Shown: one piece after another, positions 4,821 to 62,759 of the stretch
Layout of the letters: the number at the start of each line of letters is the position of its first letter
Numbering within the stretch: the first letter of the stretch is position 1
Source: Octopus vulgaris
Taxonomy: Eukaryota
Reading direction: 5' to 3'
Length of the DNA: 64,000 nt
NCBI GenBank assembly: GCA_951406725.2
Contig: OX597818.1
Coordinates: 1,922,001 to 1,986,000 of the forward strand
Made by a program: the position numbers and the translations under genes
The notes under the pieces: model-generated
What the model saw: the letters and a program-made list of their open reading frames with translations, nothing else
What the model was told of the DNA's origin: nothing
Database searches by the model: none

Positions 4821-4852
<32 letters not shown>

Positions 4853-15211: not shown

Positions 15212-15504
15212 AAAGCAGCGAGCTGGCAGAATCGTTAGCATGCTGGACGAAATGCTTAGCGGTATTTCGGCTGCTGTTACGTTCTGAGTTCAAATTCCGC
15301 CGAGGTCAACTTTGCCTTTCATCCTTTCGAGGTCGATTAAATAAGTTTCAGTTACGCATTGGGATCGATATAATCGACTTAATCCGTTTGTCTGTCCTTG
15401 TTTGTCCTTTCTGTGTTTAGCGCCTTGTGGATAGTAAGGAAATAGGTATTTCGCCCGTCGATCCGTTCTGAGTTCAAATTCCGGTGAGGTCGACCTTGCC
15501 TTTC
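15212..15504 (+). mobile_element. Same SINE with Tx1-like tail (type 2), followed by a SINE body that is split by a Tx1 LINE
   Basis: Tail ...gtgtttagcgccttgtggatagtaaggaaatag|gtatttcgccc...gcctttc; the body resumes at 20887 (atcctttcggggtcg). Confidence 0.85.
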
Positions 15505-19766: not shown

Positions 19767-19961
19767 ATTTACATTTGATGGATATTTGTCCTCATCTTGT
19801 TTGTTAACAACGTTTCGGCTGATATACCCTCCAGCCTTCATCAGGTGTTTGGGGAAAATTTCGAACCTGGGTTCTCATTCCTAAGGTATTTTTCGATGTA
19901 GTGGTTAAGAGCGCGGGCTACTAACCCCAAGATTCCGAGTTCGATTCCAGACAGTAACCTG

Positions 19962-20059
<98 letters not shown>

Positions 20060-20230
20060 CAACATCGAAAAATACCTTAGGAATGAGAACCCAGGTTCGA
20101 AATTTCCCCAAGACACCTGATGAAGGCTGGAGGGTATATCAGCCGAAACGTTGTGTTAACAACAAACAAGATGAGGACAAATATCCGCCAAATGTAAATA
20201 ATGTACATAATTCCTTATCTCTTAAATATA
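19767..20230 (+). mobile_element. Composite non-autonomous element: inverted HHR arm / tRNA-like head / (CAA,TAA)n / HHR arm
   Basis: 19765-19899 is the reverse complement of 20062-20201; duplication gaactYtggagcttt at 19752-19766 and 20231-20245; the Tx1 ORF2 resumes after it. Confidence 0.85.
20112..20157 (+). ncRNA. Type I hammerhead ribozyme (PLE-type, palindromic stem III)
   Basis: GACAC-CTGATGA-A-GGCTG(gagggtatat)CAGCC-GAAAC-GTT-GTGTT; stems I and II pair; inverted copy at ~19806-19848. Confidence 0.8.
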
Positions 20231-20840
20231 GAACTTTGGAGCTTTGTCGAACAGCTGTTGTCATGTGTAGGACAGGTCTGGTTATCAGCCAAGTCCATTG
20301 TGAGGATCGCCCCGCCGTCTTCTTTTGGCTGGGGGGGGGGAAAGGCAGATTTCCTCTGCCTGGTGGCTATAGCGAAAGAGGTAGTGTGGTGGACGAGGCT
20401 GAAAGGACTGACGACATACACTTTCCTCATCGCCTTTTTCAAGTTCCACTTGAGAAAGAAAATGAGAGTAGAGAGGGAAGTACAGCCCCCAGTAATTTTG
20501 TGGGTGAATGTTTCGAAAATGGCTCGTATGAATGGGCCTATTCTGAATATTTGTCTGTAAGCTGGAGCAGTTGAGGGGAAGAGGGCTGCCTACCTGGCTT
20601 GCCCTTGGCAGTCGGGATGACCAGGATGTGTGGGGTGCCCTGGTTGGCCCTGGGTAGAACTCCACTCACCCCACTATTGGGGAATTTTTGTTAACTGTTT
20701 TTGTTTTCTACGGTTTACACATTTTCCGTTTTAGACCCAACTTATCCCTTGTTTTGTATTGCCCCTATATATTTTTGTGTTCAGCCCTTGTAGCCAATAA
20801 AAAAGGATTATAAATAAAAGAATTAATTATTAATAAAATA

Positions 20841-23905: not shown

Positions 23906-24030
23906 AATCCCAACTGGTTAAGGTCAAAGGTCTGACAAGCAAATCTGTGATGTTGAGCAGAATATGTACATGATAACACTTCCAATCAGTTAAGATCAGA
24001 AGTCATGAGAGCCAGTGCCTGGTATTTCTT

Positions 24031-24102
<72 letters not shown>

Positions 24103-24104
<2 letters not shown>

Positions 24105-24365
24105 AAAAGGAGAAGAAAGGGGACTCTATACACCCCCTTTTTTTTACCAGGCTCCCGTTGGCTTTTGTAGGGTTTTTTCCACCAGGAACCTTTCGAGACG
24201 TCTCCCCCTTTTGGGAGTTTTTCATTGTTGAATTTTATAAGTTGTTATAAAGATTTTTACTCGATGTTTTTAAAAAACGGCAAAACCCTTTGTAACCTTT
24301 CGTCCTGTCTTGTCCCTTTATGTAATCATGCGTGTCAGCCCTTGTGGCCAATAAAAAAAAGAATT
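24103..24365 (+). mobile_element. 5'-truncated Tx1-type 3' UTR in (ATT)n
   Basis: Ends gtgtcagcccttgtggccaataaaaaaaagaatt, like the Tx1 end at ~20780-20810. Confidence 0.6.
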
Positions 24366-24496: not shown

Positions 24497-25480
24497 TAGC
24501 ATTTCTATGTTTGACTTTTGCTTTGTATTTGTACAAGCTGACTCCATGTCTCACCCAGGGACCTCAAGAGACAACAAGTTAGAAGTTTATGTTGGTGTTA
24601 TGCCTAGGGTGTCATATATTTGGTTTTGCACATACTATTGTTCTAGAAAATGTTTAAGAAAACATAAGAAAATTATGAGTTTGTTTCAAGATTTGAGATT
24701 ACATAGACAGTGTTCTGCGTAGGATATGGGCAGTTCCCATGAGCACTGTCTTTTGAATTTCTGCCCTTTTTGGGTTTCCTGCTATTTGAGCTAGGTAGGA
24801 ATCAGCCCCTTTTGCTATCATTCCATGGACACCTATGACAACAGGCATTGTTTTAGTCTTGAGGTTCCACATTTTGCCAATTTCTATTTCAAAATCTTTA
24901 TACTTGCTCAGTTTTTGGTAGGTCTTGACAGATACATTTATGTCGATTGGGACAGTCATATCAATGAGAAGGCATGATTTTTGTCTGAAGTTTTTCAATA
25001 TAATGTCTGGCCGATTTGCATCTGTCTTTCCGTCAGCTTGAATGGTGAAGTTTCAGAGGAGTGAGATGTGATCATTCTCAAGCACTGGAGGTGGTTTGTG
25101 TTCCACCAGTGTTTATCATGGGGCACATCCGGTTTTTTTCAAATTACCCAGTGAATATATTGTGCTGCTCTATCAAGATCAATGGTTTCATTTTGTTGTT
25201 TACATACACGAAATGTTGAGCTACTGCTGTTCTTTAATATGTTGGCCTGGTGGGTTCTTGTAGGTAGGCATTGGTCATAGGCTGCTATGATAAACGCTAC
25301 TGTTTCTGATTTTAAGCCAGAAGACACTAACCATTGATGAATAAGGGCTTCGTCAACTTCGGCACTATTAGCTCTCTTTGGGTGTGTGCAACTGAGAGGT
25401 TTTTCTTGCCATTTATCAGTAAGAATATCTAAGGCAGCAGTTTTAGCACGGGTTTTCAAACAAGCTTTTTCGGTGTTTGT
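24497..25480 (-). pseudogene. R4/Dong-like non-LTR retrotransposon 3' fragment (restriction-like endonuclease)
   Basis: WLVSSGLKSETVAFIIAA, RPDI, CLLIDMTVP, KLSKYKD, PVVIG. Confidence 0.85.
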
Positions 25481-25502
25481 TATTATTATTATAATTATTA
25501 AT

Positions 25503-25548
<46 letters not shown>

Positions 25549-25551
25549 CCA

Positions 25552-25611
<60 letters not shown>

Positions 25612-25613
<2 letters not shown>

Positions 25614-26320
25614 CAGTAGTTTTATTTTTATAGCGTGCTTTCACTTCACTACCGAGCGCAGCTCTGTGTGCCTTAGGTATGTGCTGTGATTTGTTGTGAT
25701 GCTCTGATGGTTATTGTATGGAAAGTGTTCTGCGTAGGATGTGTGCAGTGCCTAGTAGTGCAATTTTCTGTATGTTATATGTGTTTGTAAGTCCTGGTGT
25801 TTTTGTTATGTATTTGTCTGAATATTTTTTATCATGCCTAATGCACCTACTATGATAGGAATTGTTTCTGTTTTTAGATTCCACATTCTGGTTACCTCTA
25901 TTTCCAGGTCTTTGTATTTTGAAAGTTTCTCCATTTCTTTTAGAGACACGTTGTCATCTGCCGGTATTGATACATCAATTAAAAAGCATTTTTCTTCTTC
26001 ATGATCTCTGACAACTATATCTGGTCTGTTGGCCTTAATCTCTCTATCTGTGTGTATCGGCATATCCCAGAGTATGGTTGCTTTCTCGTTTTCTGTGACC
26101 TTTTCTGGTGTGTGCCTATACCATCTTTTTTCTGTTGTTATTCCATAATGTTGGCATAGCTTCCAGTGTATGTAGGTTCCAACTCTGCCATGTCTGTGAA
26201 TATATTCCTTCTTAGCCAGGACTGTGCAGCCAGAGATAATATGATTTATTGTTTCTTGTCCATCTCCACATATTCTGCAGTTACTTGTTATATTTCTTTT
26301 CATTACATGTTTTTGGTAAT
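25612..26320 (-). pseudogene. R4/Dong-like 3' fragment (CCHC + RLE)
   Basis: CRICGDGQETINHIISGC...RH...ANRPDIVV...LIDVSIP...KLSKYKDL. Confidence 0.9.
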
Positions 26321-26326
26321 TGGTAA

Positions 26327-26377
<51 letters not shown>

Positions 26378-26409
26378 CATCATCATTTTTATTATTATTA
26401 TCATTATTA

Positions 26410-26465
<56 letters not shown>

Positions 26466-26468
<3 letters not shown>

Positions 26469-26935
26469 TGAGAGTGCAGTGCATACCATCAGAGTGATAC
26501 TGGGGTACAAATATACCCATCATCACTTCCCGTCTGATAAAGGTACACCAGGCACATGCACCACAACCATATGTTCACGACTTGGTGATCTCGTAACAAG
26601 ATAAATATCACTTAACTTTGCAGATAGGCACCAGTTGGAATTCTTTTCAGGTCGAGTAGCCTATCCTACACAAGTCCTGAATAAGATTTGTTTCCGGAGG
26701 TGAATAATTCAAACCCCCAAAGAATTCCTTTCAATACATGGTTATGATGTTTCCCCACCACTTCTTGTGATCAGCGATGCACATATCATCAGCCACGAAG
26801 GAACATGCTCAACTGGTTAAGGTCAAGCAACTGACAAGCAAATCAATGGTGTTGAGTAGAATATTTGGTGTAGCCCATCTTTTATACCGAGACAAAATAT
26901 ATACATGAGAGCCAGTGCCTGGTACTGCATCAAGA
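26466..26935. repeat. Unclassified non-coding interspersed repeat embedded in (TAA)n (family X)
   Basis: Similar to 29530-30089 and to a fragment at 23908-24025. Confidence 0.75.
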
Positions 26936-26966
26936 CATGATTATTAATAATAGTAATTATTATTAA

Positions 26967-27009
<43 letters not shown>

Positions 27010-27011
<2 letters not shown>

Positions 27012-29225
27012 TTTTTTTTCTTCTTCTTTCGAATTTGCTATCATTTCTTGCCGAGTGTCTTCCCGACTCCTAGGGCAAAGAAACTCATAGTATACATTGG
27101 TAGGCCATTAAACCAAACTCAGTAGTTCGTTCATTTTTTTTTTTTTTTTTTTTTTAAAGTTAAATTAAAATACATGAGCAGCAACAGTTCTCACATCGAC
27201 AATGCTCTTCTCAATACGTGTGATGTACCAGTTAAGACAATCTTTTGCACTTCTTGCAGGGATGGTAAGCCAGGGATCATTCTCATATAATTTTCGGTTC
27301 CCTTCTTGATCATTCCTAGTGCTCCTACGATCACTGGTATTGTAACCGCCTTGAGATGCCACATTTTCTCAATTTCAATGAGTAGGTCTTTATATTTTCT
27401 GAGCTTGTCAAACTCTTTCGCTGAGATATTATGATCACAGGGGATGCTCATGTCGATCAATAAGCAAACTTTATTGTTTTGGTCTTTCACAACAATATCT
27501 GGTTTATTGGCCTTGATGGTTCGGTCTGTATGTACTGGAAAGTCCCACATAATGGTTACATTTTCTCCTTCAGTTACAGCCTCAGGGTGGTGATTATACC
27601 ACTTGTCGGCAGTTTTGATATTGTAATGCCGACTTATTAGCTAGTGGAGATATTGGCCAACTCTGTCATGTCTTAATTTATACTCCACTGGTGCTAAGAC
27701 TTTACATCCAGAGATTAGGTGGTCCACTGTTTCAATCATGTCGTTGCAGAATCGGCATTTTGGGTCTGCTCCATTTTTCATCACATTGGCCTGGTAGTTC
27801 CGAGTTAATAGGCTTTGATCTTGAGCAGCCAGGATGAAACCTTCGCTCTCTGCTTTTAGCCCTGAGCTCCGTAGCCACTGATGGGTTTGCTTCTGGTCAA
27901 CATCAGCTTGTTTGCTGCGGGTCACATATTTGCCGTGCAGAGGTTTCTCCTCCCACCTATCAGCCAATTGCTCGTGCGCTTTTTTCATTGCCATCATTTT
28001 CACCTTCTTTGCAACAATAGTTGCCGTACTTCTCTCGGGTTGTTCAGTTTGGGTATCCTGCACGAGATCAATAGCAAATTTTTTGCTTTCCTTTATGATA
28101 GAATGAAGCTTCTTTCGTCTCTCGTGATTTTCCACGAGCTTTAGCATCCAGTCATTCGATATTTCGAGATATTTGGCCAGTCCAATTGTGGTTGTTTTGT
28201 AAGCTAGTTCAAATTGGATCAGGCCTCGACCTCCTTGGGCTCTGGGAAGGATAAAGGCGATCTACGTCTGCCTTTGGGTGGTGCATCCTATTACAACTCA
28301 GCAGCTTGCGTGTTTTCCTATCTATATTCTTTACTTCACTCATATTCCAGTTCAACACATTGTAGCTATAAGTAACAACTGGAACTGCTAAGGAATTTAT
28401 AGCTAACACCTTGTTACGTGCATTTAGTTCAGATTTCAGGACTGCACGAACTCTCCTATAACATTCCTTCCTGATTTTCTCTTTCATGCTTGCATGCTGA
28501 ATACCAGAGCCTTCATTTATCCCTAAATATTTGTATGTTTGTTCTTGCTCAAGCTCTCTTATGACTGTGTCAACATCTAACACGACTAAATGGCCTTGGC
28601 ACACTTCTCAAGTCCAAACTCCATCCCGATGTCATCGCTGAATGCTTTCACGGTGCGCAATAGGCCTTCAAGTTCATTATTGTCTTTACCATAAAGTTTT
28701 AAGTCATCCATATAAAATAGATGGCTTATTTTTTTATTGGCAATTTTATACCCATACCCTGTTCTGTTTAATTCACTTGTAAGGGGTATTAGGGCTATGC
28801 AGAATATTAAAGGTGAAAGTGAGTCACCTTGAAAAATTCCACAGTTGATGTTTATATTTTCTGAGGCAAGTACTCCATTAGAGTGGTATAATTGGAGATT
28901 CGTATTCCACAACGACATATTGTGCTTCAGGAAGTTTGAAATCACAGGGGAAATTTTGAAGATGTCCAGCGATCTCAAGATCCATGGATGCGGTATACTG
29001 TCGAAGGCCTTTTTGTAGTCAATCCATGCGGTGCTGAGATTTCTGCGCTTGTTGTGACAGATTGATTAGCAGTTGATCTTTGCATCCGTAAGAGCCTCGG
29101 CGGCACCCTTTTTGTTCAATGGGGAAAATATCGTTCTTCTCCATGAATGCATATGTTTTCTCCGCCAGGATAGATGTTAGGATTTTATACGTGGTGGACA
29201 GACAGGTTATAGGCCGATAGTTTTT
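27010..29225 (-). pseudogene. R4/Dong-like LINE, RT + CCHC + RLE, 5'-truncated
   Basis: NYRPITCL, EQKGC, GIFQGDSLSPL, HLFYMDDLKLY, YKYLG, CRFC...ETVDHLISGC, NKPDIVV. Confidence 0.92.
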
Positions 29226-29263
29226 ATCATTATCATTATTATTATTATTATCTTCATTATTAT

Positions 29264-29472
29264 TCAGTAGTCTTACTTTTATCACATGCTTTCACTGCAC
29301 TACCGAGCGCAGCTCTGTGAGCCTTGGGTGTGTGCTGTGGTTTGTTGTGAGGCTGTTATTTTTACTGTATTGAAAGTGTTTTACGTAGGATGTGTGCGGT
29401 ACTGAGAAATGCTATTTTCTGAATGTTACATATATTTGTTAGTCCGGGTGTTTTTGCTATGTATTTGTCTGA
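29264..29472 (-). mobile_element. R4/Dong-like extreme 3' fragment
   Basis: Near-copy of 25615-25822 (cactaccgagcgcagctctgtg). Confidence 0.8.
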
Positions 29473-29529
<57 letters not shown>

Positions 29530-30088
29530 GAGTGAGAGAGCAGTTCATGCCATCAAAGTGACACTGGGGTAAAATATACGAAGCCCAATATACCCATCAT
29601 GACATGACTACCCGTCTGATAAGGGTACACCAGGCACATGCATCACAACCATATGTGCGCGACATGGTGATCTCATATCAAGATAAACAGCACATGACCT
29701 TGCAGGTGGGGCCCAGTTAGAATTTTCTTCAGGTCGAGTAGCCCATCTCGCTCAAAGGGTCCCTGAATAAGGGTTGTTTAAGGATGTAGAACGAAACACT
29801 AATGTTTCCAGAGGTGAATTATTCAAACCCCAAAGAATCCCTCTCAACACATGGCTATGATGCTCCCCCACTACTTCTGCTCGTGATCAGAGATGCACAT
29901 ATCGTCAGCCACAAAGAGACATGCTCAACTGGTTAAGGTTAAACAACTGACAAGCAAATCTGTGGTATTGAGCAGAATATTTGCTGTAGCCCATCTTTTA
30001 TACCAAGACAAAACAATGTACATGATAACACCTCCAATCAGTTAAGATCAGAAGCCATGAGAGTCACTGCCTGGTACTGCATCAGGGC

Positions 30089-30089
<1 letters not shown>
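29530..30089. repeat. Family X, longest copy, (ATT)n on both sides
   Basis: gagtgagagagcag...gcctggtactgcatcagggc; similar to 26466-26935. Confidence 0.8.
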
Positions 30090-30144
<55 letters not shown>

Positions 30145-31150
30145 GAAAATTCACAGCTTACTTTGCTGGGTATGATGAAAAGTGTCAGCTGTCCACAGCC
30201 AGCAGACTAAGGTGACACTTGTTTACTGGTCATACTTCAAGAACCTTGCAAAGAATTATTGCAGTTCAAAATAATGCTGATTTTTGTAGGTGTTCTACCT
30301 TCACACTTGCTGCAGTCTTTTTCAGCCATGTTGGTAGTTGAGTGCTGATACTTTCAAGTGCACCAATTACTATTGGTATCACGTCTACTCATTGACCACA
30401 GCCTTTGTATTTCCCACTTTAAATCGTCACAGTCGTTTATCTTTTCTTCTTTCACATTCATACTTTTGTCACCGGGGCATGCTATGTCGATCATCACACA
30501 TGCTCTTTATTTCAATTCACTCAACAATATCCGGTTTCCTATGTCTGGTCGGGTGATTACACAGGATTTTGCAATTCTCATTTTCGGTGACTCCTTCTGG
30601 AGTTTGCTCATACAACGTCTTTACTCTTTGTAGGCCATGATTTCCATTGAGCTCCCAATGGATCATTCTTGCCACATTATCATGGAATCGTTTGTGTTCG
30701 CGTTGTGCCAATTTCGGGTATTCGCTAACGACGTACCATACTGTTATCACCCCTCACACCACACATTCTGCATTTGTCGCTATTGGTAGAGCTGTCTATT
30801 CTGCACTTCGTTGACGCATTTCCTTAACGTTTGTTCTTGAGCTGCGCATATGAGTGCTTCTGTCTCTATCTTCAGATCACTCTTCATCATCCATAGCCAC
30901 CGGTACTTTGTATGTCTTGACGTTCACATCTCTTGCAAACTGGCCATATATTTTTCCTTCCCTGCTTTTTCTTATTTTTTTGTTCATTTCTTGTTTAAAT
31001 TTTTCTTTAGTTACACAATTTTCAGTTTTGATAATACCAGCCCTCTTCGTGTGTTTCAACAGTGGCTCCACGGCATTTTTACATACCACCCTCAATACTA
31101 AAACAATGGACCATGTTCACCAAGAAACTCACTTGTGTCTCATCTTTGCC
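30145..31150 (-). pseudogene. Decayed R4/Dong-like LINE 3' part
   Basis: KIYGQFARD, PKLAQREHKRFHDNVARMIHWEL, TPEGVTENENCKIL, RKPDIV. Confidence 0.8.
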
Positions 31151-34860: not shown

Positions 34861-35227
34861 GCTTACTGTTAACAAATGTCCATATATATGTATAATTTGT
34901 TTTTGTATCTGGTTAGCAAGATTCTTTATGTGAAGATTCTTTATTGTTGAAGCAAATTATGTTTTCGTCTGGGGAGAATCATATTGTCTTAATGCCTTAC
35001 TGTCTAACACACTCACAGGTTTGAATTTTCATTCATTTATAACTTGTATTTTTTCCAAAGTTTTTCGTTGCTTTTACAACCTTGTCCGTTATTGGAGTCA
35101 ACATCCATTGAGAAGGTTGCAAAAGCAACGAAAATTTTGGAAGAAACAATATAAATAATAAATGAGTTGAAATCGAGCTGATGAGTGTGTTAGATAATAA
35201 GGCATTAAGACAATATGACTCTCCCCA

Positions 35228-36235
35228 AAGGCGGCGAGCTGGCAGAAACGCTAGCACGCCGGGCGAAATGCGTAGCCGTATTTTGTATGCCGTTACGGTC
35301 TGAGTTCAAATTACGCCGAGGTCGACTTTGCCTTTCATCCTTTCGGGGTCGATAAATTAAGTACCAGTTACACACTGGGATCGATGTAATCGACTTAATC
35401 CGTTTGTCTGTCCTTGTTTGTCCCCTCTATGTTTAGCCCCTTGTTAGCACCTTGTGGACAATAAAGAAATAGGAAACGTTAGCATGCCGGGCGAAAGGCT
35501 TAGCGGTATTTCGTTCAAATTCCGCCGAGGTCGACTTTGCCTTTCATCCTTTCGGGGTCGATGAAATAAGTACCAGTTATGCACTGTGGTCGATATAATC
35601 GACTTAATCCGTTTGTCTGTCCTTGTTTGTCCCCTCTGTGTGTAGCTCCTTGTGGGCAGTAAAGAAATAAGAAACATTAAGCACACCGGGCGAAATGCGT
35701 AGGTGTATTTCGTCTGCCGTTACGTTCTGAGTTCAAATTCCGGCGAGGTCGTCTTTGCCTTTCAACCTTTCGGGGTCGATAAATTAAGTACCAGTTACGC
35801 ACTGGGGTCGATATAATCGACTTAATCTGTTTGTCTGTCCTTGTTTGTCCCCTCTGTGTTTATCCCCTTGTGGGTAGTAAAGGAATAGGTATTTCGTCTG
35901 CCGTTATGTTCTGAGTTCAAATTCCACCGAGGTCGACTTTGCCTTTCATCCTTTCGGGGTCGATAAATTAAGTACCAGTTACGCATTGGGGTCGATGTAA
36001 TCGACTTAGTCCGTTTATCTGTCCTTGTTTGTCCCCTCCATGTTTAGCCCCTTGTGGGTAGTAAAGAAACATGTATTTCGTCTGTCTTTACGTTCTGAGT
36101 TCAAATTCCGCCGCAGTGGACTTTGCCTTTCATCCTTTCGGAGTCGATAAATTAAGTACCAGTTACATACTGGGCCAATCTAATCGACTGACCCTCTTTC
36201 CCAAAATTTCGGGCATTGTGCCTAGAGTAGAAAGG
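35228..36235 (+). mobile_element. Nested/tandem SINE array (5 units) bounded by one 16-bp TSD
   Basis: TSD aatatgactctcccca at 35212-35227 and 36236-36251; four units end in the type-2 tail, the last in the type-1 tail. Confidence 0.9.
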
Positions 36236-36251
36236 AATATGACTCTCCCCA

Positions 36252-39864: not shown

Positions 39865-40400
39865 TAAACTAAGTATGAGTTTCTTTATTGTTGAATCCTA
39901 ATCTTCCGAATAATAAACAACTTATTGAGAAATCATTCAGGAGACATAAAGCCCTTGTGTAATACGAATTCAGCATCGTGAAAAATAATTGGTAATCCTA
40001 TATGTCAGCTGCAATTCAAGTAGTAACTGATATAAAATTATATAAGACTGTATATGATCTTCATAAAAAAGTGGTATTTAGTCCACACCATTCCTCAATA
40101 ACTTGTTAAAATATAATGACTAGTCGTATTAAAATTTCTAGTTGGTTTCATAATTCCAACCGTGGCTCTAAGTCCTGGATTGTTTCGCTGACCAATATGG
40201 ATCCTCTTCCGGGAATATTCTTTATTGAAGTATACGGAACTCCGAATACGTTCATTGTGAAAACAATGCTTATAAAGAGCATTGTCACAGTATGTTAAAA
40301 ATAAGTTTATATCAATATGAAGATAAAAAAAAAGCCCTGCTAAATTAGTCGGTGCATTGGTCATGGCTAAATAGATGACATATCGTATATATATATATAT

Positions 40401-40893
40401 ATTTCTTTATTACCCACAAGGGGCTAAACATAGAGGGGACAAACAAAGGTATTAAGTCGATTACATCGACCCTAGTGCGTAACTAGTACTTATTTTAATC
40501 AACCCCGAAAGGATGAAAGGTAAAGTCGACCTCGGTGGAATTTGAACTCAGAACGTTGCGGCAGACGAAATACTGCTAAGCATTTCGCCCGGCGTGCTAA
40601 CTTTTCTGCCAGCTCGCCGCTTTAGATGACATATCGTATATATATATATATACATATATCCTATTTCTTTACTACCCACAAGGGGCTAAACACAGAGGGA
40701 ACAAACAAGGACAGACAAACGGAATAAGTCGATTACATCGCCCCAGTGCGTAACTGGTACTTAATTTATCGACCCCCGAAAGGATGAAGGGCAAAGTCGA
40801 CCTCGGCGGAATTTGAACTCAGAACGTAACGGCAGACGAAATACACCTACGCATTTCGCCCGGCGTGCTAGCGTTTCTGCCAGCTCGCCGCCT
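40401..40893 (-). mobile_element. Two tandem type-2-tail SINE copies
   Basis: Each runs from (a)ggcggcgagctggcag to cccttgtgggt...aaagaaat on the minus strand; separated and flanked by tagatgacatatcgt. Confidence 0.9.
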
Positions 40894-41028
40894 TAGATGA
40901 CATATCGTGTGTGTGTGTATATATATATAAATATATATCCTATAGTAGCAAAGAATGTCATATACATACAAGCATACATACATACATATATAAACGCGTA
41001 TGCATGTACGTTTGAATGAATATATGTA

Positions 41029-44790: not shown

Positions 44791-44946
44791 TATACTTCTA
44801 CCTATACGTATATGTTTGTGTGAGTTCCACAAGCTCGCAAAATAACTTTACGTGGATGGAGAAGAAGAGAGAGAGATGCCTTCTCATAACTATGATGATG
44901 ATGACGATGATAACAAGAGCACTCTGAGAGCGCGAACCTTCGCCAA

Positions 44947-46747
44947 TGTTTCTTGGCACTACGGCCACAACACAGAGGGGACACTATAAAGACAGACACA
45001 ACACCACGGTGGGGACAAAAATCATAAAACGAATGAAAATGAGATGTTATATAAAAATGAAAAATGAAATGGCTGCATAGACCCCACTCCCATGCAGTAT
45101 CATTTGAACGTTTATATAAACTACTTACAATCGTTCTATCATCTTATTGTTCTTTCTTAATCTCGCTTTTTCCTCTCTTTTTTTAAATGAAACAATTTTA
45201 CTTTTTTCCTTCTTTCTTCAATAAAACAATTCTACTTACTTTTTCCTTTTTAATATCACATGAAAGGTTCTAAATCTTTTAGCTCCATTACTGGTGGCAA
45301 TTCATCAAACTATACCATCACTCCTGGTGGGTCAATCCCTTCTCCACACATGTCTTTTAGTCTGTTGTAGGTGTCATTGTCAACCACAATGGCCTTCACA
45401 TTCTCGGAATACACATCTGTGGGCAACTTGACTCTTATAATATGTTTAAACTTTAATACTTTCTTTTCAGTGTCTTTGCTTTTTGCATACGTCACAAAAT
45501 TCCATCGAAATTTTCCTTTTCTTATTTTTTTCTCTTTTCCTGCTCCGTTCCTAGCACCTTCTTCTTTTCTTCCACCTCTCTGAACAGTCTCTCCAGTTGC
45601 GTTTCTAAATTTTCTTCCTCCACTGGAACAATCGGTGTTTTCACCAATGTCTTTTCCTTATGCAACTCCTCCTTGAACACTTCTTCAAGTTCCTTTTCGC
45701 TTACTTTATCCACCACCATTTCGTCTTCCGTCCTTCAGGTCATCTCCTTTTCCATCTCTTCTTTCTTCATTTTCTGCTGCTCTGGCGGAGAGCTCACTCT
45801 CCCACTTCTCTTTCTTTTTTTAAACACCGTGAACCCCTCATCCGTTGCTTTCTCCTTTATCTCGACCTGTACCACCTGGTCCGTGCTCTCCTGCCTCTTC
45901 GTCTGCTTTATCTGCTGTTCCCTCTGGGGGCACATTGCCTTCATGTGGCCCTTTTCCCCACATGTATAACATATAGGCGGCGTGCCCGCCACCACCACTC
46001 TCAATCTTACGTCATCGGACAGCACTATCTCTTCGACAATTCTGTTTAGGTCTTCCACTGTTGCTTGAACGGTTAACTTTATTCCATATCCCCAGTTGTT
46101 AAATCTTTGGGTTCTTGTGGCCTTCAGTATCTTGACCTCCTCATTTATGTCATACATTTTGGCTGTCATCAACCATGCTTCTTTCAGCTCTGGGGGCACT
46201 TTGCCAACTCGCACCCTGGCCACACGTTTGCCATAGTACGATGGCAAAAGTACCCATTCTTCAGATCTTATTGCCTCCGTGGAATTGCTTCCTCTTCTGA
46301 TGCAATAAGCACCTCCACAGTAGCGTACTTTCTCCCTTTTATTTTAAATGTGGTTAGTCTTTTTATATTCTTCAAACATTCTTCAATAGCCTCTATTGTC
46401 GCTATTTCTATTTTCCTTGTTGCTATCTTCATTGTCTTCCATATCACCGTTCTTTTCATTACATTGGTTGTTCCGTCTCTTTCCAGCAACTTCTCGCATT
46501 CCTTCATTTTTCGAGGTTCAACCTTTATTTCTCGTACCCCCAGCATTTACATGTCTGCCCCTTTTCCAGTTGCAGCCACATAACTGTGGCCACCTGCTGG
46601 CATTTTCTCCATTTTTCCCACAACGGGAAAAAACAACAATTCAAAATAATACAAGCAACAATTTGAACAGTAACAATCAATCAAACAAATATTTAACTTA
46701 CGTCTAACATGACAAAAAAACAACTCAAACCGCCTGTGTGGTCACAT
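44947..46747 (-). mobile_element. ORF1-only Tx1-derived retroelement A (~1.8 kb)
   Basis: Frameshifted ORF1 with CYTCGEKGHMKAMC knuckle and C-terminal FDELPP; no APE/RT; 16-bp TSD cgcgaacctYcgccaa at 44931-44946 and 46748-46763. Confidence 0.85.
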
Positions 46748-46780
46748 CGCGAACCTCCGCCAAGGCAACATCAACGTCCT

Positions 46781-48589
46781 GATTTCTTTTATTATGCACA
46801 AGGCACAACACAAAAACAGACAAAACAATACAATGGGTTACATAAAAACACATACCGTATGAAATTATTGATACAATGAAAAATGAGGATGGAATTACTT
46901 ACCTGCCCCCCCCCCCCATAAGCAGGCAGTTTCATTTTACTGTTTTTAAATAAAGTTTTACTAACAGTTCAATATCCTGTCTTGTATCTGTTGGTTTTCC
47001 ATTTTTTCCCTTTTATTTTTAATTAAAACAAAGTCACCAGTATAATCCAATAAATCTTCGAATACCACCATCGGCGGCAACTCATCGAAACGAAACTGTA
47101 CTATTGTCACCTCTATCTTTTCCCCAAAACAATTCCTTCAACCTTTCTCTTCTTTCTCTTTCCAGCAGAATAGTTTTCATACCTTGCACTCTGTGAGCGC
47201 CAACTTAACCCCAACCACGTTCTTCATCATCGCAATCCCTTTTTCCATCTCTACACCTCCTGTGTACTGTATCATAGTTCTTATATTTTTCCCTTCTGGT
47301 GTCACTCTCTGCCTTCCCTCACCAATCTCCTTTACTGTTGCTGGCATTCCTATCGCTGTATGTCTTTCACTCTTTGTTGCTATCATCTCTCTTTCACCTT
47401 CCTCTTTCTTCTGTACTTCTCCTCCTTGCTAGTTGATGGTAACGGTTTCTGCCTTCGCTCCTCGACCTTGTCACTTACACGTGTTGACCCCTCATTTCTT
47501 CCCTGCTCGTTCGCCTTTCCTTGTTTTCCACTCTGCGTCTCCTCTCCACTTCCCTTTCTCCCCTTCCTAGGACCCCTCGGTGGTGAGTCCGTGTTACTTT
47601 TCTTCCTCTTCACTACTGTATACTGTTCTTCCATTTTTTGCTCCTCTACGGTTGAACCCTCTTCCTCTTCATGTTCCCTCTCTATCTCCTCCTCTTCGCG
47701 CTTCCAGGGACACCCAGCCTCCATGTGTTCCCCCAGCCCACATTGACAGCATACGGGAGATCCCCCCTCCACCACAACTCCCAACCTCGTCCCGTCCGGC
47801 AACACCAACTCCTCCGTAATCTTGTGGAGGTCCGGCAAACTGATGTAAAACGATACCTCAAGGCTGCATTCCCACCAGTCCACCTCCGCAGCTCTTGCAA
47901 CTTTCAGCATTTTGGTGTCCTCATCCGCACTACAAAGGATGGCTTCCACCAGCCACGCCTCGTCAACCTCTGGGGGCACACCACCAATCCCCAATCCGGC
48001 CGCACATTTGCCACAGTAGGCCGGCAGCAGCACCCACTCAGCTGATCTCAAAGGCACAGTAGAGTGTCCCATCTCCTCTCCCTCACTCACGAAGCGCACC
48101 TCCACTGCGCCGCACTCCCCTCCTCTGGTTCAGCACATCGCTAGATCTTTGACCTCTCTCAAGCACTCCTCGACCGACTCCACTGCTGCCATTTCCACTC
48201 CCTCTGCTGAAACAGACAGCTTTCTATATATTATTTTCCTTCTCTCTGTCCTTTCTACAACTTCCCTAGGCGGTACCAGCCTCAGGCTGTCCCCTCCCCC
48301 TCAACAGCTCATTTAACCTCCCGAAATCCGTTTCGTTCAATTGAACTTCTCCAACTTTCAAGACATCCGCGGCTAGACCCCTCCCATCCACAACCGCCTG
48401 CTGGCACTGGTCTACCTTGCATAATATTATCCACAAATTCACCCATAAATGGGGAAGAAATACAAAAAGTCAGGCAACAATAAATTCAACAATTTAGTAA
48501 TATAACAATTTAACAATAACAAGACTCACATGGAGCGAACACACATCAAATGCAACAGGGAACCAAATGACTCGACACAACACTAAGGA
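46781..48589 (-). mobile_element. ORF1-only Tx1-derived retroelement B (~1.8 kb)
   Basis: ORF1 homologous to A (VPPEVDEAWL, LGVVVEG, CCQCGLGEHMEAGC, FDELPP); 15-bp TSD caacaYcaacgtcct at 46766-46780 and 48590-48604. Confidence 0.85.
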
Positions 48590-48915
48590 CAACACCAACG
48601 TCCTCTCAACGATTTTTTAAAATGAGAATATCTGAAATAAAATCGACTTCTCTCACAAACGAGAATACTAAAAATGAACCCGACCGCTCTCAAAAATTAA
48701 ATTAAAAAAAGCCAGAGAAATCATCCAGAATCTTTGTTCGGTAGCAGATCGATCCCAAAATCTAATCAATTCGTGCAAGTCACGAGCCCAAACATCCCTG
48801 AAAGCTTCATCCGAATCCATCCAGCAGTTCTTGAGAGATCTTGTCCACGGACAAACAAACAAACAAACAAACACGACTGAAAACAATACCTCCCTCTTCG
48901 CTATGGCGGAGGTAA

Positions 48916-49819
<904 letters not shown>

Positions 49820-49820
<1 letters not shown>

Positions 49821-49960
49821 GTTTCAAATTTTGCCACAAGGGCAGCAATTTTGGGGATGAGTCGATTACATCGACCCAGTTACTATATCAACCTCGAAAG
49901 GATGAAAGGCAAAGTCAACCTAAGCGGAATTTGAATTCAGATCGTAAATACGGACGAAAT
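49820..49960 (-). mobile_element. 3' part of a SINE split by a Tx1 LINE (head at 54767-54826)
   Basis: Minus strand atttcgtccgtatttacg...ttcaaattcc...ctttgcctttcatcctttcgagg. Confidence 0.85.
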
Positions 49961-52900
49961 ACCAATTTCTTTATTGCCCACCGGGGGCCAAACATAGAAA
50001 TGGACAGAACAACTGATGGGATCAGTGAAGCGATATGATTTTATATATAGTGACTTTAAAAATTTAAATACAATATATAAAAAATCGAATGGAATTAACA
50101 ATACAAAGACAAAACAAATGAAGCGATGATCAGGCCACGCTCCGACCCCACAAGCCCCGATCTACCGCTGGTACCTTTTTTTTCTCCTTTTTTTCCCGTC
50201 TATTAACACGGTTCCTTGCACGCACAACACTCGTGCAACATGCTTCCATCTCTTTTGGAGCGTACACTCCGACAGACATCTCTTCTCCAGCCACAGTTTC
50301 CTTTTCAAATGAAAAGAAAAAAAGTTCGTAAATTGTGGCCAGAGATAAAGTTGTCTGTCTTAATTCCTTATATCCTAGTCTTCCATACTGCCTCTTTCGC
50401 TATTGCTACAACCGTAAGAAAACAATTCTTACCTTCGTTCGTTAAAACTCCCGGTGGGTCAATTTTTACAATTGACTCAGTCGACAGCTGTACTCTTCCT
50501 TCGCCGGACAACAGGTGTTCAGCATAAGCCCACATTTCAGTTATGTCCGGACACTGATCAATAATGTGAGGGGCGGTTTCCCTGTACCCCCCCCCCGCAT
50601 CTTGGACTGGTCGGCGACTGACGTTTACCATGTCTTGCGAGCTTATCCCAAACGGGCAAGGCACCTCTTAGCGTTACCAGGTTATGGACTTTTGGAAGGT
50701 GTCCAACGTTCCCAACCCGAATGTACGGTGAAACAAGCTGTCCAGTTGAATAAACACAAGACCTAGAGTCGACCTCAAGCCATCGTCGCGTTCAGACTCT
50801 ACCAACCCACTATATAAAATCCGTGTGGAACCCCCACCGCTGGCGTTGTCCGAGCGCCGGAATAGCAAGAGGGCCTTACGGCACTCTTTATGCCACTCAC
50901 TCGACCTCGGTCTACGAGAACACCAGGCTTCCTGTTCGCAAAAACTTTTGAACTCGGAGAACATTTGTCTGGCCAGCGGAGACCATACCCATTCACTATC
51001 TTGGAGAATCCAGAGGTGCCTCAACCTCAACGCATGTCTGCGCATCATTAACCAGGGCATCCCTAAACCTCCCGTTAAAGGCTTTTGACAGCAGACAGAG
51101 CGTTTCACAAGTGGCGACCTGCCCTTCCACACAAAGCGAAAGAGCTGTCTCTCCAACCTGATCAACCACGAATCCGGACAGGGTAGGTAATGACCGATGC
51201 GGTAAACACATTGGCCACCTCCGCCCCTCCTTTCAGGGATAACTACCGCCAAGACCAGGTCTTGACTACTGCAGCCACCCTGTTCAATACCTCCGTCCAG
51301 TTCTTCTCTATCTGGAAGCCTGGTCCAAACCAAACTCCCAGCAACTTAACCGGTCCCTCCGTCCAGCGCTCAACAATGCTATCTGAAGGCATCGATTTGC
51401 CAACCCAGGTGCCGAGCTGCAAGCCGACCGACTTTTCCCGGTTAATCTTTGCTCCTGTCACCTCCTCGAAAGCCTCAATAGTCTCACCCACTTCACGTAG
51501 GCGTGCTACTGAGGTTACGCTGATAGTGATATCATCCGCGTAAGCCCTAACAAACTCCTTTAGACCTGGTTCTCTCAGGATGCCACTCAACCTTCACAGT
51601 AAGGGCTCGAGAGACATCACATACAAAAGTGGTGAGAGCGGACATCCTTGGCGAACCGAGCGTCTGATGCAGAACGGCTTCGAAAGGAACCCGTTCACCC
51701 GAACTATCGAGTCAATGTTGTGGTACAAAGCGATAAACTACCTGAGGAAGCCAAGGCCCAGGCTGAACCGCGCAAGCACAGTCGCCAGGTATCGATGGTC
51801 AACCCTATCAAAAGTCCAAATGTACCAATACCCCACCTTTGCCAGATTTATTACCAACCCTCTCTATGATATAGCGAATAAGATGGAAGGTATCCTGAAT
51901 GGTTCTGCCCGGGATGGTACATGTCTGTGCTTCCCCGACTATACCATTCGCGACACGCGCCAACCTTTTTGTTGAGACCTTGGCCAAAATCTTCACTTCT
52001 GCGTTTAAAAGAGTGATGGACCTGAAATTCCCTATAACGTCCCCCTTTTCCGGGTCCTTTCTGACCAACGTCACTACCCCCCGGCGCACAGAGCTGGGGA
52101 TAAACCCATTCTGTTGCCAGTTCGCGTACACGTCAGCCAGTATTTGCCCGAACAAGTCTGGCATACATTTATACAGCTCGTATGGAAGACCATCAAGTCC
52201 CGGCGACTTACCCGCTTTACAGTCGGCCAAAGCCTCCATCACCTCCACAGGCGTGATTGGCCTTTCGCAAGACTCAACATCCGACCCCGAGAGACATGGC
52301 AGCCCGGCAAGAAAGTCCTCGAGAGCTCTCTCACCACCAGGAACACCGCTACCCTCGAACAGCTGGGCGAAGTACTCCCGAAAGGCCTCACGCATTTTCT
52401 CGGGTTCGTTTACCAAGACATCATTTTGATTCGTCAAAGACCGAATAGAGGAACTATTTCCTTGCCGAGATTCCACCACTCGGGCCCATCCAGCGACCTT
52501 GATTCCTTCACTTCCCATGTATTGGGCTTCAAGATGCTGGTTTAACTCTAGTCTTTTCACCCTCGCTTGGTCCGCATTACCAGTCCTCCAGGCTTCTTCT
52601 AGTTCCTTAACTAGACCATCTATTCTTCGTCCCTTCTTAGCTAAACTTATGCTAAACCTAATAGACTCATATTTGATGGCTCTTTTTAGGGCGTACCACC
52701 ATTTGTTATTAATGACGGTACCTGTTAATGCCCTCTGTATTAACATCTTGATCCGCTTTCTGTACTCCTCAATCGCCAAAAGTTTCCAGTAGCCAGATCC
52801 CTGACTATGCAACTTATCTACCGTCAGTTTACAGGTAACCATCTTGTGGTCATTGTAGCTGACTAGAAAAACCTGTGGACACACGACTATGGACTTATCT

Positions 52901-54766
52901 GTTTCTCTAATTATAATCTTATCTAGATATGTTCTGGAAGACCCGTCACTATTTGACCACGTCCACTGTGGAGTGTTCGGGCGTTCCAGCCTATAAGGAT
53001 CTGCTAGCTGAAATTGACTTAGCAGATCTCGTAAGTCCGGGTTACATTTTCTGTTCATGTCCGAGCCAACACAATCTGTGTGTGCTACACATATTGTTTT
53101 AAAGTCTCCAAACAATACTAGCGAATGCGATGTGGCTAGGAACTTGCCCAGGTCACGAAAATAATCAGTTTGCGGGCCCATAATGTTAGGTGCATAAATA
53201 GTGACCAGCCTGATTGTCTTGCCACAACTGAATGTCAGGTCAAGAACGACCAACCTGCGTTCTGTGTCAGAAAAGAACAACTTTTTCTCGGCTTCTCGGT
53301 TTCATTTTAGTAGGATCAATACTCCTCCCCCACCTCCCGCCCGACTCGGAGAAACGTATTTCTAGTAGCCGTTCAGGAAGGGGAGCAGATCTCTTGGCCT
53401 TTTCACCCGGGTTTCCGTTGCAACAATTACATCCAAGTTTCTCGACCTGATGGCATTTAGAAAGCGCCCTTGCTTCCAGCTTGACATCAGGCCACGAACA
53501 TTTATACAACCAATGTGAATAGACGTGACTTACCTTGTGGAGAGGGATTCTCCACTTTTTCGTGACTCAGGGTCGGAGATGGTAAGCCTTCAAACATGGA
53601 TTGGTGAAAATCAAGTCTCCCTGTTGAGACCGATTTTTTATATGTGTAAAACAACATATTGTACGTTTTTTCGTCCAATTCGTAAAATTCATAGTTTTTA
53701 TATTTCTCTGACAGTTCAATTAATCGAGTTGCCGATTTTGGGGTTTTTATTTCCCGCATTAAATCTTCGTTTTTACTGTATAGTGCAGCTATTCCTCCGC
53801 TCGTCACCCCCTCCGCCTTCCTCGGTCTGTCTCTCTTGGCTGTTTTTTTTTGGGGGGGGGTTGTCTCAACTCGCTCTGCTTTTGCTGGTTCGAGCCTTCC
53901 ACTTTCCTTTTGTTGTTTATTTTTCCTTTAGTTTCTCTCTCTCTTTCTTTCTCTTCGCCGTCTGATTCTTCTACACCTTCTTTACAATATTTTTTAATGT
54001 GACCCAGTTGGCCACACTGGAAACATCGGGCGGAATTCTTGGTATTCTCACTTTTGACGTTCTCATTCCCATGTAAATTGGGATTAACATTATGTCTTCC
54101 GACTCTAAAGATTTTATAGAGTGTTTTTGTGCAGTTTCTGCATTTTTGAACCTCACCACGATGGTACCAAACTTCTTCCCTCTGGCTAGATATGTAATGT
54201 CCTGCCAGACATTTTTCAATTTTTTGTTCACATATTTTAATAATTTTACGAGCTTTTAAGCAAAATGTCTTAAAAATAATGATTTTCTTTTTTTCCTCCG
54301 TTAATTCTTCTTCCTGTATTTCCACTTTTACTATTTCATCTCGTTCTGTTATCATATCTTTATATTTTAATAATTCTTTTATGTCAGTTGTCGCGCTCCA
54401 CCACCAGCCGCTGACGCAAAACTTTTCTTTTCTTCATTTTGGATGGTCCTTTTTTTCTGTCTTCCTATTGATGTTCGTAACTCTTGGTAATGTTGGAAAT
54501 TCGCTTTCCGACACATCAGAAACGTTGTCAAAAATTATGCTTTCTATTTTCTTTGCTTCTCTTTCAATCGATGATTCGTCCCCCGACGAAGAACACGAAC
54601 TTTTCCGCATCTTGCCGGCAATTAAAGGGGAAAACCACAGATAGCTTTCGACAAAAAAAATATAATACAATTTTTTCAACAATAAGTCCAACAATAGGCA
54701 CAACAAGAAACATAACAATTAATAGAAACTTACGAACACACTCCAACAATAAATTTTCAGTAACAG
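49961..54766 (-). mobile_element. Tx1-clade LINE, near full length, decayed, inserted in a SINE head
   Basis: ORF1 knuckle CFQCGQLGHIKKYC; APE (TIYAPN, LFGDF, SRTYLDK, DHK, GSGYWKL); RT (KSPGLDG, FRSITLLN, AYADD, VKLLGVWF); 11-bp TSD acggacgaaat at 49950-49960 and 54767-54777. Confidence 0.92.
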
Positions 54767-54986
54767 ACGGACGAAATGCGGTTAAGTATTTTGTTCGGCG
54801 TGCTAATAATTCTACCACCTCGACTAATAATAATAACAACAGCAACAACAATAATAATATTGCTATTATTATTATTTTGGGGTCTATAAATTAAGTACCA
54901 GTGAAATACTGGAGTTAATGTAATCGACTAGTCCCCAAAAATTTTCAGGCCTTATGCCTATAATAGAAAGGCTATCATCATCGTCG

Positions 54987-59532: not shown

Positions 59533-59680
59533 AGGGCAGTGAGCTGGCAGAATTGTTAGCGGTCTTCACCTTCTGAGTTCAAATTTCGCCTTTCAACCTT
59601 TTGAGGTCAATAAAATAAATACCAGTTAAGCACCGGGTTCGATATAATCGACTTACACCCTCCCTCAAAATTTGAAACCG
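59533..59680 (+). mobile_element. Deleted copy of the Meta-like SINE
   Basis: agggcagtgagctggcagaa...gagttcaaat...gcctttcaacc...aataccag. Confidence 0.7.
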
Positions 59681-60330: not shown

Positions 60331-62249
60331 CTAATGTCATTTATGTACAGAATTCCCAGGATTCAGAAAAACGTTTATTGATTTCACCGCCCAGGCACTA
60401 TCACAGTTCAGACTTCATCTCTGCAAGCAAGAAATATAATAAAATGGATGACCTTAAAATGATGTCTGAAATTAAAAGATTGCAAAATAGATTCATGAAA
60501 TCTGTTATTAAAGAAATTATGAAGCTGAATAACACACTGAACTCCAATGACAAGATAAAATAAAGATCATTAAAATTGAGAATAGGTAAGTTCAAACTTA
60601 CCTATTCTCAATTGGCATTGAAGGCAGTGTATCGATCGAACGATAGGAAAGAGTTCTAACAAGGGAAATAACTTGCGGAATTTATCACATTTAAACAAAA
60701 TCCTTTGGTAATCTTTCCTTGAATTTTTCACAAATAAATTAAGAAACTTGCTTGATTTCTATTAGGTCCACGATTTGTATGTGGGAATTAACTCCCTCTA
60801 GTTTTCTGCTCCCAGGTAAAATAGATTTCAATAAAATCAATTTGAATGTAATCAATTTTCTTTAAAATGTCTAACGGCTTTTACTTTAAGCAATATCAGA
60901 AGTTATCAACTTTCTATTTTAAATGTTTCAATTTTTTTTTTGCAAGATACAAAAGTTTAACGGGAGGATCAAATCGTTCATGCCTTTTCCACGTCTTATC
61001 ACATTGTCAACGTTATTTCTCTATCTAAATCGCATTTAACTCTACTTAGTCCATTTATGTCACCTTTTGCATCTTCCCTAACTTTACAAATCTTTTTTTT
61101 TTTCTTTTTGAAATTTCTATTTGTCTTTCAACATTTCCTTCAGTCAACCGACAGAATATCTATACAATTCTACTTTTACATCTTACTTACTTCACTCTTC
61201 GTTGAGGCTAATCAATTTTCCTAAAGAAAAAAAATAAAATTACAACTTGATTTGAAACATTGTCCCGAAATATCTTGACAACATTGAAAACTATAAGCGA
61301 AATAATACACCTATTGAAAATGCTTATATACGCCCAGTGAAAAATGAAGGCCACTCAGTCTATGTAAGCTTTTTTGTTTGTAATTTATTTCAATACAAAC
61401 AATCTGGGAGTATATTTTTCTCTCTTTTATTGGCAATAGTCGTGATATCTACTTGATATATTTAGCTTATGGAGCAGTTTTATCTCTTTCTTTATAAGAT
61501 ATTGTAAAGAAAAAATTTTGACATTCTTTTTCTCCTTTTATTTTCTTTATCACTTTCTGCTTCAGTGACCAGATCACTCACTTAGTTTCTCCCAGTTATG
61601 CAGAATATGTGCTTAGTTACTTACACAACCGGGACATATTTTAGTTGCAAAATAAACCAGCAAAGTAATACATTAATAAAGTAAATCTTTATAAATTTCT
61701 TTGAACCATTGCATATATGAGACTCATTGAAATTATTGTTTTAAATTCTAATATAAATTCCTTACTTTTAGAGAAGCTGCAGTAACATTTAGTAACTATA
61801 ATAATGAAAATATTGATTTTTCGGAACAAAAAAAAAATACGTAAATTGAGTTTATTCGATTAGTCTTGTCTACGGGCACACAGGCATAAATTTACAAAAG
61901 TCCACTGAATCGGTCCCAGTACATGACTGCTACTTATTTTATAGACACTGGAAAACTTAGACTAAACCCGGAACATGGAGAATTTAAACTTGGAAGAAGA
62001 AATTAAGAACTAGAAAGCATCCAACTCGGTGCTCTGTCTTTTTTTACCAATGAAGCAAGTAAGATTAATGTAAACATCCTTTTCATTGCAAAAGTCCTGC
62101 TGCATTCTCCAACTGGACAAACGAACATCTCAAGAAAACTTAAAAACTTTAATATATTACTCAAATACGTAAACATGCTTTTTATTGCAACAACACAATT
62201 GAATTCAGAAATTCAAAAATCCAACGACGTGAATGTCAGAGGCAAAAAC

Positions 62250-62458
62250 AGCACGCCGGGCGAAATGCGTAGCCGTATTTCGTATGCCGTTACGTTCTGA
62301 GTTCAAATTCCGACGAGGTCGACTTTGCCTTTCATCCTTTCAAGGTCGATAAATTACATACCAGTTACGCACTGGGGGTCGATGTAATCGACTTAATCCG
62401 TTTGTCTGTCTTTGTTTGTCCCCTCTATGTTTAGCCCCTTGTGGGTAGTAAAGAAACA
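62250..62458 (+). mobile_element. 5'-truncated type-2-tail SINE
   Basis: agcacgccgggcgaaatg...gccccttgtgggtagtaaagaaac. Confidence 0.85.
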
Positions 62459-62759
62459 GGGGATCTTTGCCTTTTGAAAGCCAGATTTTCCTAGTTAACT
62501 AAACAATTTGAAACTTCGTATACTGGTAGATTGTGTCAAATGAAAACATAATAGTAAACCAAAATGAAAACGGAATTGTAATTTTTAAGTTTAACGTTGT
62601 TTAAAAATTGGAATTTTAACCAATGATATTCTTTCTTTCGGCCTCATATTATTTACTGCTTCTCAAAATATTGTTACTGTGACGTAAACAGCTATTTTGT
62701 GACGTAGCTAACGTATCAAAATGTAAACATCCGCTTATCGTTGCTGGTCTGGTTGCGGA

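Follow-up and report, generated by a model that had tools for sequence, protein, structure and literature searches.

The targets of target-specific long interspersed nuclear elements (LINEs) of the Tx1 clade serve as safe harbours, and Dewa-type Tx1 elements are directed to tRNA or other RNA polymerase III (Pol III) genes. According to the available text of PMC4494074, Xenopus Tx1L, Keno, Kibi/Koshi and the crocodilian Tx1 elements combine an apurinic/apyrimidinic endonuclease (APE) and a reverse transcriptase (RT) with a CCHC-type first open reading frame (ORF1) and a target site duplication (TSD), and insert into a multicopy sequence at a fixed position. The target classes described are RNA genes, microsatellites, and DNA or long terminal repeat (LTR) transposons, with piggyBac, U2/U5 small nuclear RNA (snRNA) genes, 5S rRNA, satellites, microsatellites, Mariner, Harbinger and LTR elements named; short interspersed nuclear elements (SINEs) do not figure in the list given in that text (PMC4494074). 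The same source describes Tx1-Mar and SINEU-3 of crocodilians, a Tx1-type LINE and a SINE with a common target inside another transposable element, in which tandem SINE insertions sandwich a TSD and whose sister SINE families show a weaker preference (13-23%). Here we analyze a 64,000-nucleotide stretch of Octopus vulgaris DNA (contig OX597818.1, positions 1,922,001 to 1,986,000; hereafter the window), in which a decayed Tx1-like LINE of the APE-RT type lies within the head of a SINE, at the same base at which units of a SINE subfamily, SINE-T, are joined in arrays. The system appears to work like Tx1-Mar/SINEU-3, except that the crocodilian target is a Mariner DNA transposon, whereas in the octopus the SINE would be its own target. 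The SINEs differ as well, the SINEUs having snRNA heads and poly(A) tails (PMC4494074) and the octopus SINE A- and B-box-like motifs and a hairpin-bearing 3′ tail resembling that of a LINE.

Pairs of SINEs and LINEs with homology between the tail of the SINE and the 3′ end of the LINE, a relationship also seen here and suggestive of stringent 3′-end recognition, were surveyed in PMC3747384. An L1-group partner is rare for a SINE, since that survey of 58 pairs, most of them with CR1 or RTE, counts an L1-clade tail in only three SINEs and, in its available text, describes no self-targeting. For O. vulgaris, 80 L1-Tx1 and 17 tRNA-Deu consensus families were reported, with SINEs making up 11.6% of the genome (PMC13282606). 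The octopus L1-Tx1 LINEs and tRNA-Deu/CORE SINEs of that report and of PMC8967140 belong to the same element classes as those described below and are treated, in the text available, for their abundance and age, not their targets or partners; neither the LINE family nor the SINE of the window could be assigned to one of the named consensus sequences. Repbase and Dfam aside, our literature search returned no SINE reported as a Tx1 target and no partners for octopus SINEs.

On the minus strand, exact copies of ATTTCGTCCGT at 54767-54777 and 49950-49960 bracket the LINE (Table 1). Elsewhere in the 64 kb, matches to this motif with up to one mismatch occurred only at the SINE array junctions 15448 and 36075, the number expected by chance being 0.8. 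The duplication lengthens to 13 bp with one mismatch, 15 bp with two and 17 bp with three; by eye it reaches ~19-20 bp, and SINE paralogs in public contigs align as far as 54765. The exact 11 bp are probably the surviving core of a decayed TSD that was originally 13-20 bp long, a length comparable to the 15-19-bp duplications of two nearby ORF1-only elements. Removal of the insert restored a SINE that aligned with all three intact copies tested (79.5-81.5%) without a gap at the joint. The joint itself (49955 to 54783) was present at single-copy depth in three public runs (X1-X3), where it may represent an empty allele or else a paralogous SINE. The first-pass annotation, which had placed a Tx1 LINE inside a SINE head with an exact TSD, is thus confirmed as to the insertion by both copies of the motif and the gap-free empty site; the duplication is exact in its 11-bp core, its full length being greater and containing mismatches. 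Its further claim that the insertion site equals the junction of the SINE arrays was correct: the LINE 3′ junction and the array junctions at 15446, 35889 and 36071 all coincide at one SINE base (site B).

SINE-related matches in the window number 16 and cover ~3.8% of its length. The copies have a common head and body and one of three different tails: A, carried by the host SINE of the LINE; B, followed by (ATT)n in three of four copies, once as the variant (ATC)n; and T, which defines SINE-T and, like the rest of that subfamily, is devoid of runs of four T. The host tail A is followed by ~900 bp of (ATT/ATC)n. A 5′-truncated tail-B SINE in the opposite orientation (54879-54975, plus strand) lies ~50 bp from the host SINE head and in the same (ATT)n tract. 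The SINE had been called tRNA-derived and the site placed between its A and B boxes. Box-like motifs are visible by eye against the consensus that we assume for them; the head matched no tRNA in Rfam, even at an E-value of 10, or in ARAGORN, so that the tRNA-derived label rests on these motifs and on the literature.

The LINE also appears to be tied to the SINE subfamily that builds the arrays by its 3′ tail, a link absent from the first-pass annotation. The last ~37 nt of the LINE match the tails of five SINE-T copies at 79-88% over 33-37 nt, with one further hit of 90% over 20 nt, so that the pair shares the 3′ tail by which SINE/LINE partners are recognized. None of six A- or B-tailed SINE segments matched the LINE tail (p 0.34-0.99). 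Among the five LINE-like tails in the window, that of the LINE was the best match for five of the eight SINE-T tails and tied for one. Among the loose ends listed for X1-X3, 188, 100 and 239 contigs, respectively, match the LINE tail up to 49998 and then continue into SINE-T internal sequence; the public data cover four of the 24 listed runs, as contigs only, and the listed loose ends are mostly SINE contigs. All 17 tails aligned contain a hairpin with a 4-bp stem and a 5-nt loop, which shows compensatory changes between families. Its positions pair in 86.7% of alignment cells, compared to 63.2% after shuffling (0/500) and 30-53% in slid controls, and 12 cells are changed on both sides of the stem; the alignment excludes the tail at 44950, whose loop is 6 nt long, and that at 59680, in which no loop was found. 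The hairpin thus supports a common recognition element, without proving it.

Where SINE-T has landed points the same way. Among the eight SINE-T 3′ ends of the window, three lie at site B (15446, 35889 and 36071) and two at site A, located at the A-box-like motif ~35 nt upstream of site B (35472 and 35669). With ~12 site-B positions among 128,000 strand positions, a random insertion would strike one with a probability of ~1e-4 by simple arithmetic. In all three nested loci, the outermost SINE carries a non-T tail. The three intact T units of the 35-kb array are 91.5-94.1% alike and 94.0-96.6% identical to the dispersed copy at 40.8 kb (the comparison excludes the 35473 unit, whose body is deleted), and a comparison of the tail end with the stretch of head that precedes site A or B showed no in-register homology that might seed unequal crossing over. 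Because the units are not homogenized and a 16-bp duplication flanks the whole array, nested insertion fits better than tandem duplication, and simple tandem duplication was rejected as the main origin of the arrays. The unit at 15212 has a T-type body behind a head bearing the non-T variant at one diagnostic base, as would be expected had the head of the host been kept, albeit at a single base. Growth of the arrays in place and their spread as composite RNAs are both compatible with the data from the window.

As to its affiliation, the LINE is an APE-RT element of the L1 group, Tx1-like, and of an octopod lineage. Relatives of its ORF2 carry PF03372 followed by PF00078 (APE, then RT), as expected of the L1 group, and the first atlas match of ORF2 (score 0.96) had the same families, with Mollusca as the commonest taxon. 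The closest solved relative was human L1 ORF2p (E 4e-26), R2 reaching only E 2e-3, in a PDB comparison that samples few clades. Protein searches returned no named Tx1 member. In a 32-row RT tree, which includes no named Tx1 row, the LINE grouped, with a support of 0.96, with a second LINE of the window and a protein of Argonauta hians, at 55-63% identity. Tx1-clade ORF1 is of the RRM/zf-CCHC type rather than the Transposase_22 type (PMC5203782, available part). Two ORF1 pieces of the LINE scanned for Transposase_22 gave no match, nor did Pfam RRM; zf-CCHC was detected at E 0.004, under the curated cut-off, the corresponding value for a related ORF1-only element being E 3e-6. By tblastx, the RRM-like stretch of ORF1 matches the two ORF1-only elements located at 45-48 kb (E 2e-5 and 4e-5), in which it lies ~215 nt ahead of the CCHC knuckle; in the LINE the two abut, suggesting an internal deletion. 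A SopD match on a charged ORF1 piece (E 0.001, under cut-off) was rejected as compositional. RVT_1 was found on two ORF2 fragments, again under the Pfam curated cut-off, and Pfam returned nothing on a 497-aa APE/RT piece or on the N-terminal APE piece. An ORF2 alignment scan recovered five distant loci (25-30% identity) in metagenomes and none in GTDB or viral contigs, and the LINE tail pattern gave no locus in metagenome and viral contigs; an octopod locus emerged from neither scan.

The LINE had been described as autonomous-type, which holds for its ORF1-APE-RT architecture and not for the present copy. Its ORF2 contains at least eight in-frame stops and three frame changes by tblastn tiling, and its ORF1 is broken, so that the intact ORF1 and ORF2 of an active autonomous LINE are lacking. 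At four of the ORF2 stops nearly all family contigs in X1-X3 show another base, indicating decay peculiar to this copy. Multiple copies of the family occur in several organisms represented in the public runs, where depth is not a measure of copy number; a fourth run (X4) contains LINE pieces with 0-7 differences from this copy, which say nothing on expression, the RNA nature of that run being a guess. The ORF1 starts of both LINEs of the window, at 54610 (minus strand) and 15697 (plus strand), lie in a CAAGATG context, which we take to be akin to the YY1-like motif of L1-type internal promoters.

Table 1. Coordinates of the LINE, its host SINE and the SINE-T loci within the window
Feature	Position	Strand	Basis
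Host SINE head, 5′ piece, with degenerate A-box-like motif at ~54807-54817	54780..54826	-	empty-site alignment
TSD, 5′ copy; exact core 54767-54777, decayed extension to ~20 bp	54760..54779	-	
Tx1-like APE-RT LINE, decayed, without poly(A) or simple-repeat tail	49963..54759	-	
ORF1 remnant in three frames; RRM-like stretch, CCHC knuckle, apparent internal deletion	53505..54610	-	
ORF2 remnant; APE endonuclease, RT (YADD), C-terminal region like that of zf-RVT-bearing relatives	50204..53523	-	
LINE 3′ tail in common with SINE-T; hairpin with 4-bp stem at 49976-49988	49963..49998	-	
TSD, 3′ copy (site B); exact core 49950-49960	49944..49962	-	
Host SINE body; B-box-like motif at ~49926-49938, non-T tail A	49820..49943	-	
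SINE-T unit joined at site B (15446) to a host SINE body	15212..15504	+	
Five-unit nested SINE array; four T-tailed units, last unit with tail B	35228..36240	+	
Junctions of the 35-kb array	site A 35472, 35669; site B 35889, 36071	+	
16-bp duplication around the whole 35-kb array	35212-35227, 36236-36251		
Two SINE-T copies in tandem; non-SINE AT-rich target present three times	40400..40895	-	
5′-truncated SINE-T with non-SINE flanks	62241..62460	+	

The insertion and its duplication, the ~37-nt tail with a covarying hairpin, and the identity of the junction base between the LINE and three SINE-T junctions are direct observations. The explanation that we favor, with reasonable though far from complete confidence, is that the LINE family prefers a site in the SINE head and mobilizes SINE-T, which carries its 3′ tail, to that site. 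In functional terms, the partnership would consist in the LINE protein mobilizing the SINE RNA. Several facts nonetheless weigh against this explanation. A single LINE copy was examined, and no listed read or contig crosses either of its junctions, nor were flanks of other family members recovered. Three of the eight SINE-T ends lie outside SINEs (two in tandem at an AT-rich target and one with unrelated flanks); counted by locus, two of four SINE-T loci and the single LINE locus are within SINEs, the other two SINE-T loci being outside. SINE-T also uses two different sites in the head, and the three site-B junctions, which come from two loci, could descend from one composite master RNA. For two of the eight SINE-T tails, other Tx1-like tails in the window outscored that of the LINE, with a tie for one more, and the true partner of SINE-T may be a sister family, the tail motif being common. 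The hairpin windows were centred by eye on related sequences, and single-sequence folding of the LINE tail was unremarkable (z -1.0), with one of six tails below -2. Finally, the name Tx1, for which the architecture (PMC5203782, available part) and behavior of the LINE argue, does not derive from a tree with named families. The first-pass annotation had assigned the LINE to Tx1, and a Tx1-like identity is supported. That annotation had also proposed a SINE-specific family. By the Kojima measure of a target-specific family, one sequence type in more than 20% of flanks, the figures here are one of one LINE copy and, with SINE-T as a proxy, five of eight ends. A preference for the site is thus supported; strict specificity is too strong a term for one LINE copy, two SINE-T sites and three of eight ends outside SINEs, and the SINE-T preference is a loose one, as with SINEU-1 and SINEU-2.

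Mechanistically, we infer from established target-primed reverse transcription and endonuclease-driven target choice (PMC4494074, available text) that the endonuclease would nick the SINE head at site B, and for SINE-T also at site A, and that ORF2p would bind the 3′ hairpin and prime reverse transcription of LINE or SINE-T RNA at the nick. Because SINE-T carries the target itself, its insertions would nest as head-to-tail arrays in older SINEs with other tails. A SINE-T body arriving at site B would bring its own B box to a normal spacing behind the A box of the host, which would thereby be turned into a T-tailed unit. The first-pass annotation had suggested instead that the LINE may gain an upstream Pol III A box. 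This idea suits SINE-T better than the LINE: insertion of the latter leaves the B box at a distance of 4.8 kb, the A box of the host is degenerate, and a run of at least six T begins ~107 nt into the LINE, which contains eight runs of at least five T in all. On account of the T runs and the displaced B box, we rejected as unlikely a Pol III transcript of the LINE that starts from the A box of its host; the LINE would gain nothing from that A box and most likely used its own 5′ untranslated region.

The most serious competitor, which we nevertheless consider unlikely, holds that octopod Tx1-like families have a common loose preference, that the LINE reached site B opportunistically, and that the arrays are composite RNAs, dimeric or multimeric and derived from one or a few ancestral nested loci, spread by the partner of tail B. 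The 35-kb array, with its single outer 16-bp duplication and tail-B end, does resemble one retrotransposed multimer; SINE-T, lacking a run of four T, might be read through by Pol III; three of the eight SINE-T ends lie outside SINEs; and dimeric SINEs that amplify as units are known (PMC10702118, available part). Even so, composite RNAs would still require founding insertions at sites A and B, and the LINE has independently struck the same base, in a host with a different tail (A). Nor are the array units any more alike than dispersed copies, and the 15212 unit joins a head of non-T type, at one diagnostic base only, to a T-type body.

Much less probable, in our estimation, is an origin of the arrays by unequal recombination or slippage, in which case the likeness of the tails would reflect a generic Tx1 motif and no partnership at all. 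SINE-derived satellites and tandem arrays ascribed to recombination between TSDs have been reported (PMC10702118, PMC11481361, both in part), and the hairpin is present in all tails examined. This account is at odds with the lack of in-register homology at the site A and site B junctions, with the recurrence of one junction base at two loci and in the LINE, with units that are not homogenized and end in a unit with another tail, and with the failure of other-tail SINEs to match the LINE tail. We give as little credence to the proposal that the LINE actually targets tRNA or other Pol III genes and strikes the SINE head by resemblance. The site does lie between A- and B-box-like motifs, and non-LTR elements are known to target tRNA genes (PMC4640811, PMC5035012, available parts); however, a head unmatched in Rfam and ARAGORN is far from any modelled tRNA, and the window holds no tRNA gene for comparison.

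The SINE-T copies outside SINEs have features of their own. The tandem pair (40375-40960, minus strand) consists of copies 85% alike, with three copies of one 20-45-bp AT-rich target between and around them, a layout suggestive of repeated insertion at one non-SINE site. No flanking duplication was found for the copy at 62241..62460.

The first-pass annotation had further noted four large Tx1-related insertions in the window, all within other repeats, and we agree. One of them is the second decayed APE-RT LINE (15506-20810, plus strand; 55% RT identity to the main LINE), which lies in a SINE body at a third position, has an (ATT)n end and no clear duplication, and contains a further insertion with inverted arms (19765-20201). 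At its end it resembles both the ends of tail-B SINEs and an (ATT)n-embedded fragment (24100-24360), and it is a candidate partner of tail B. It may also be microsatellite-directed; since its (ATT)n end resembles the 24.1-24.4 kb fragment inside a microsatellite, this 15.5-20.8 kb element need not be SINE-directed. The two ORF1-only elements (44950-48590, minus strand), with Tx1-like tails and 15-19-bp duplications, lie ~20-30 bp apart near one end of a single repeat (~44915-48920) that has a subterminal inverted repeat and (GTTT)n, a layout of the kind seen in non-autonomous elements associated with Helentrons. The two may derive from Tx1 as non-autonomous elements directed to another transposon. 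Among the remaining elements, a stop-free frame of 1149 aa (3-3449, minus strand; RT E 1e-7, weak GIY-YIG), surrounded by a 98.6% terminal repeat (1-291 and 4531-4822), belongs to a young Penelope-like element. A decayed RT element at 21400-24000 (minus strand; RVT_1 E 0.003) is Penelope-like in appearance. Stacked 5′-truncated RT/zf-RVT pieces at 24500-31000 (minus strand), each bounded by (TAA)n and interleaved with another repeat family, resemble microsatellite-targeting R4/Dong elements.

If the favored explanation is true, a SINE hit by its own partner LINE would be a new class of Tx1 target, and would offer a testable mechanism for tandem SINE arrays and tail exchange, for which recombination or template switching is the usual explanation. 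A rare case of a SINE with an L1-group tail would be gained as well, and targeted-insertion work would have a new APE specificity at its disposal. Since SINEs make up ~12% of the O. vulgaris genome (PMC13282606, available part), repeat annotation and genome structure could be strongly affected. More tentatively, and with some doubt, we propose a self-targeting SINE-LINE loop, in which the 3′ tail of a Tx1-type LINE would have been acquired by an octopod SINE whose own Pol III promoter is cut by the LINE endonuclease. In such a loop, each new SINE copy would be a new target, and LINE insertions would disable the promoters of their hosts. SINE-T insertions at site B would restore an A-B promoter ahead of a T tail, taking over rival subfamilies. 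The outcome would be nested arrays and tail swaps among subfamilies, each tail being bound to a Tx1 family with a target of its own.

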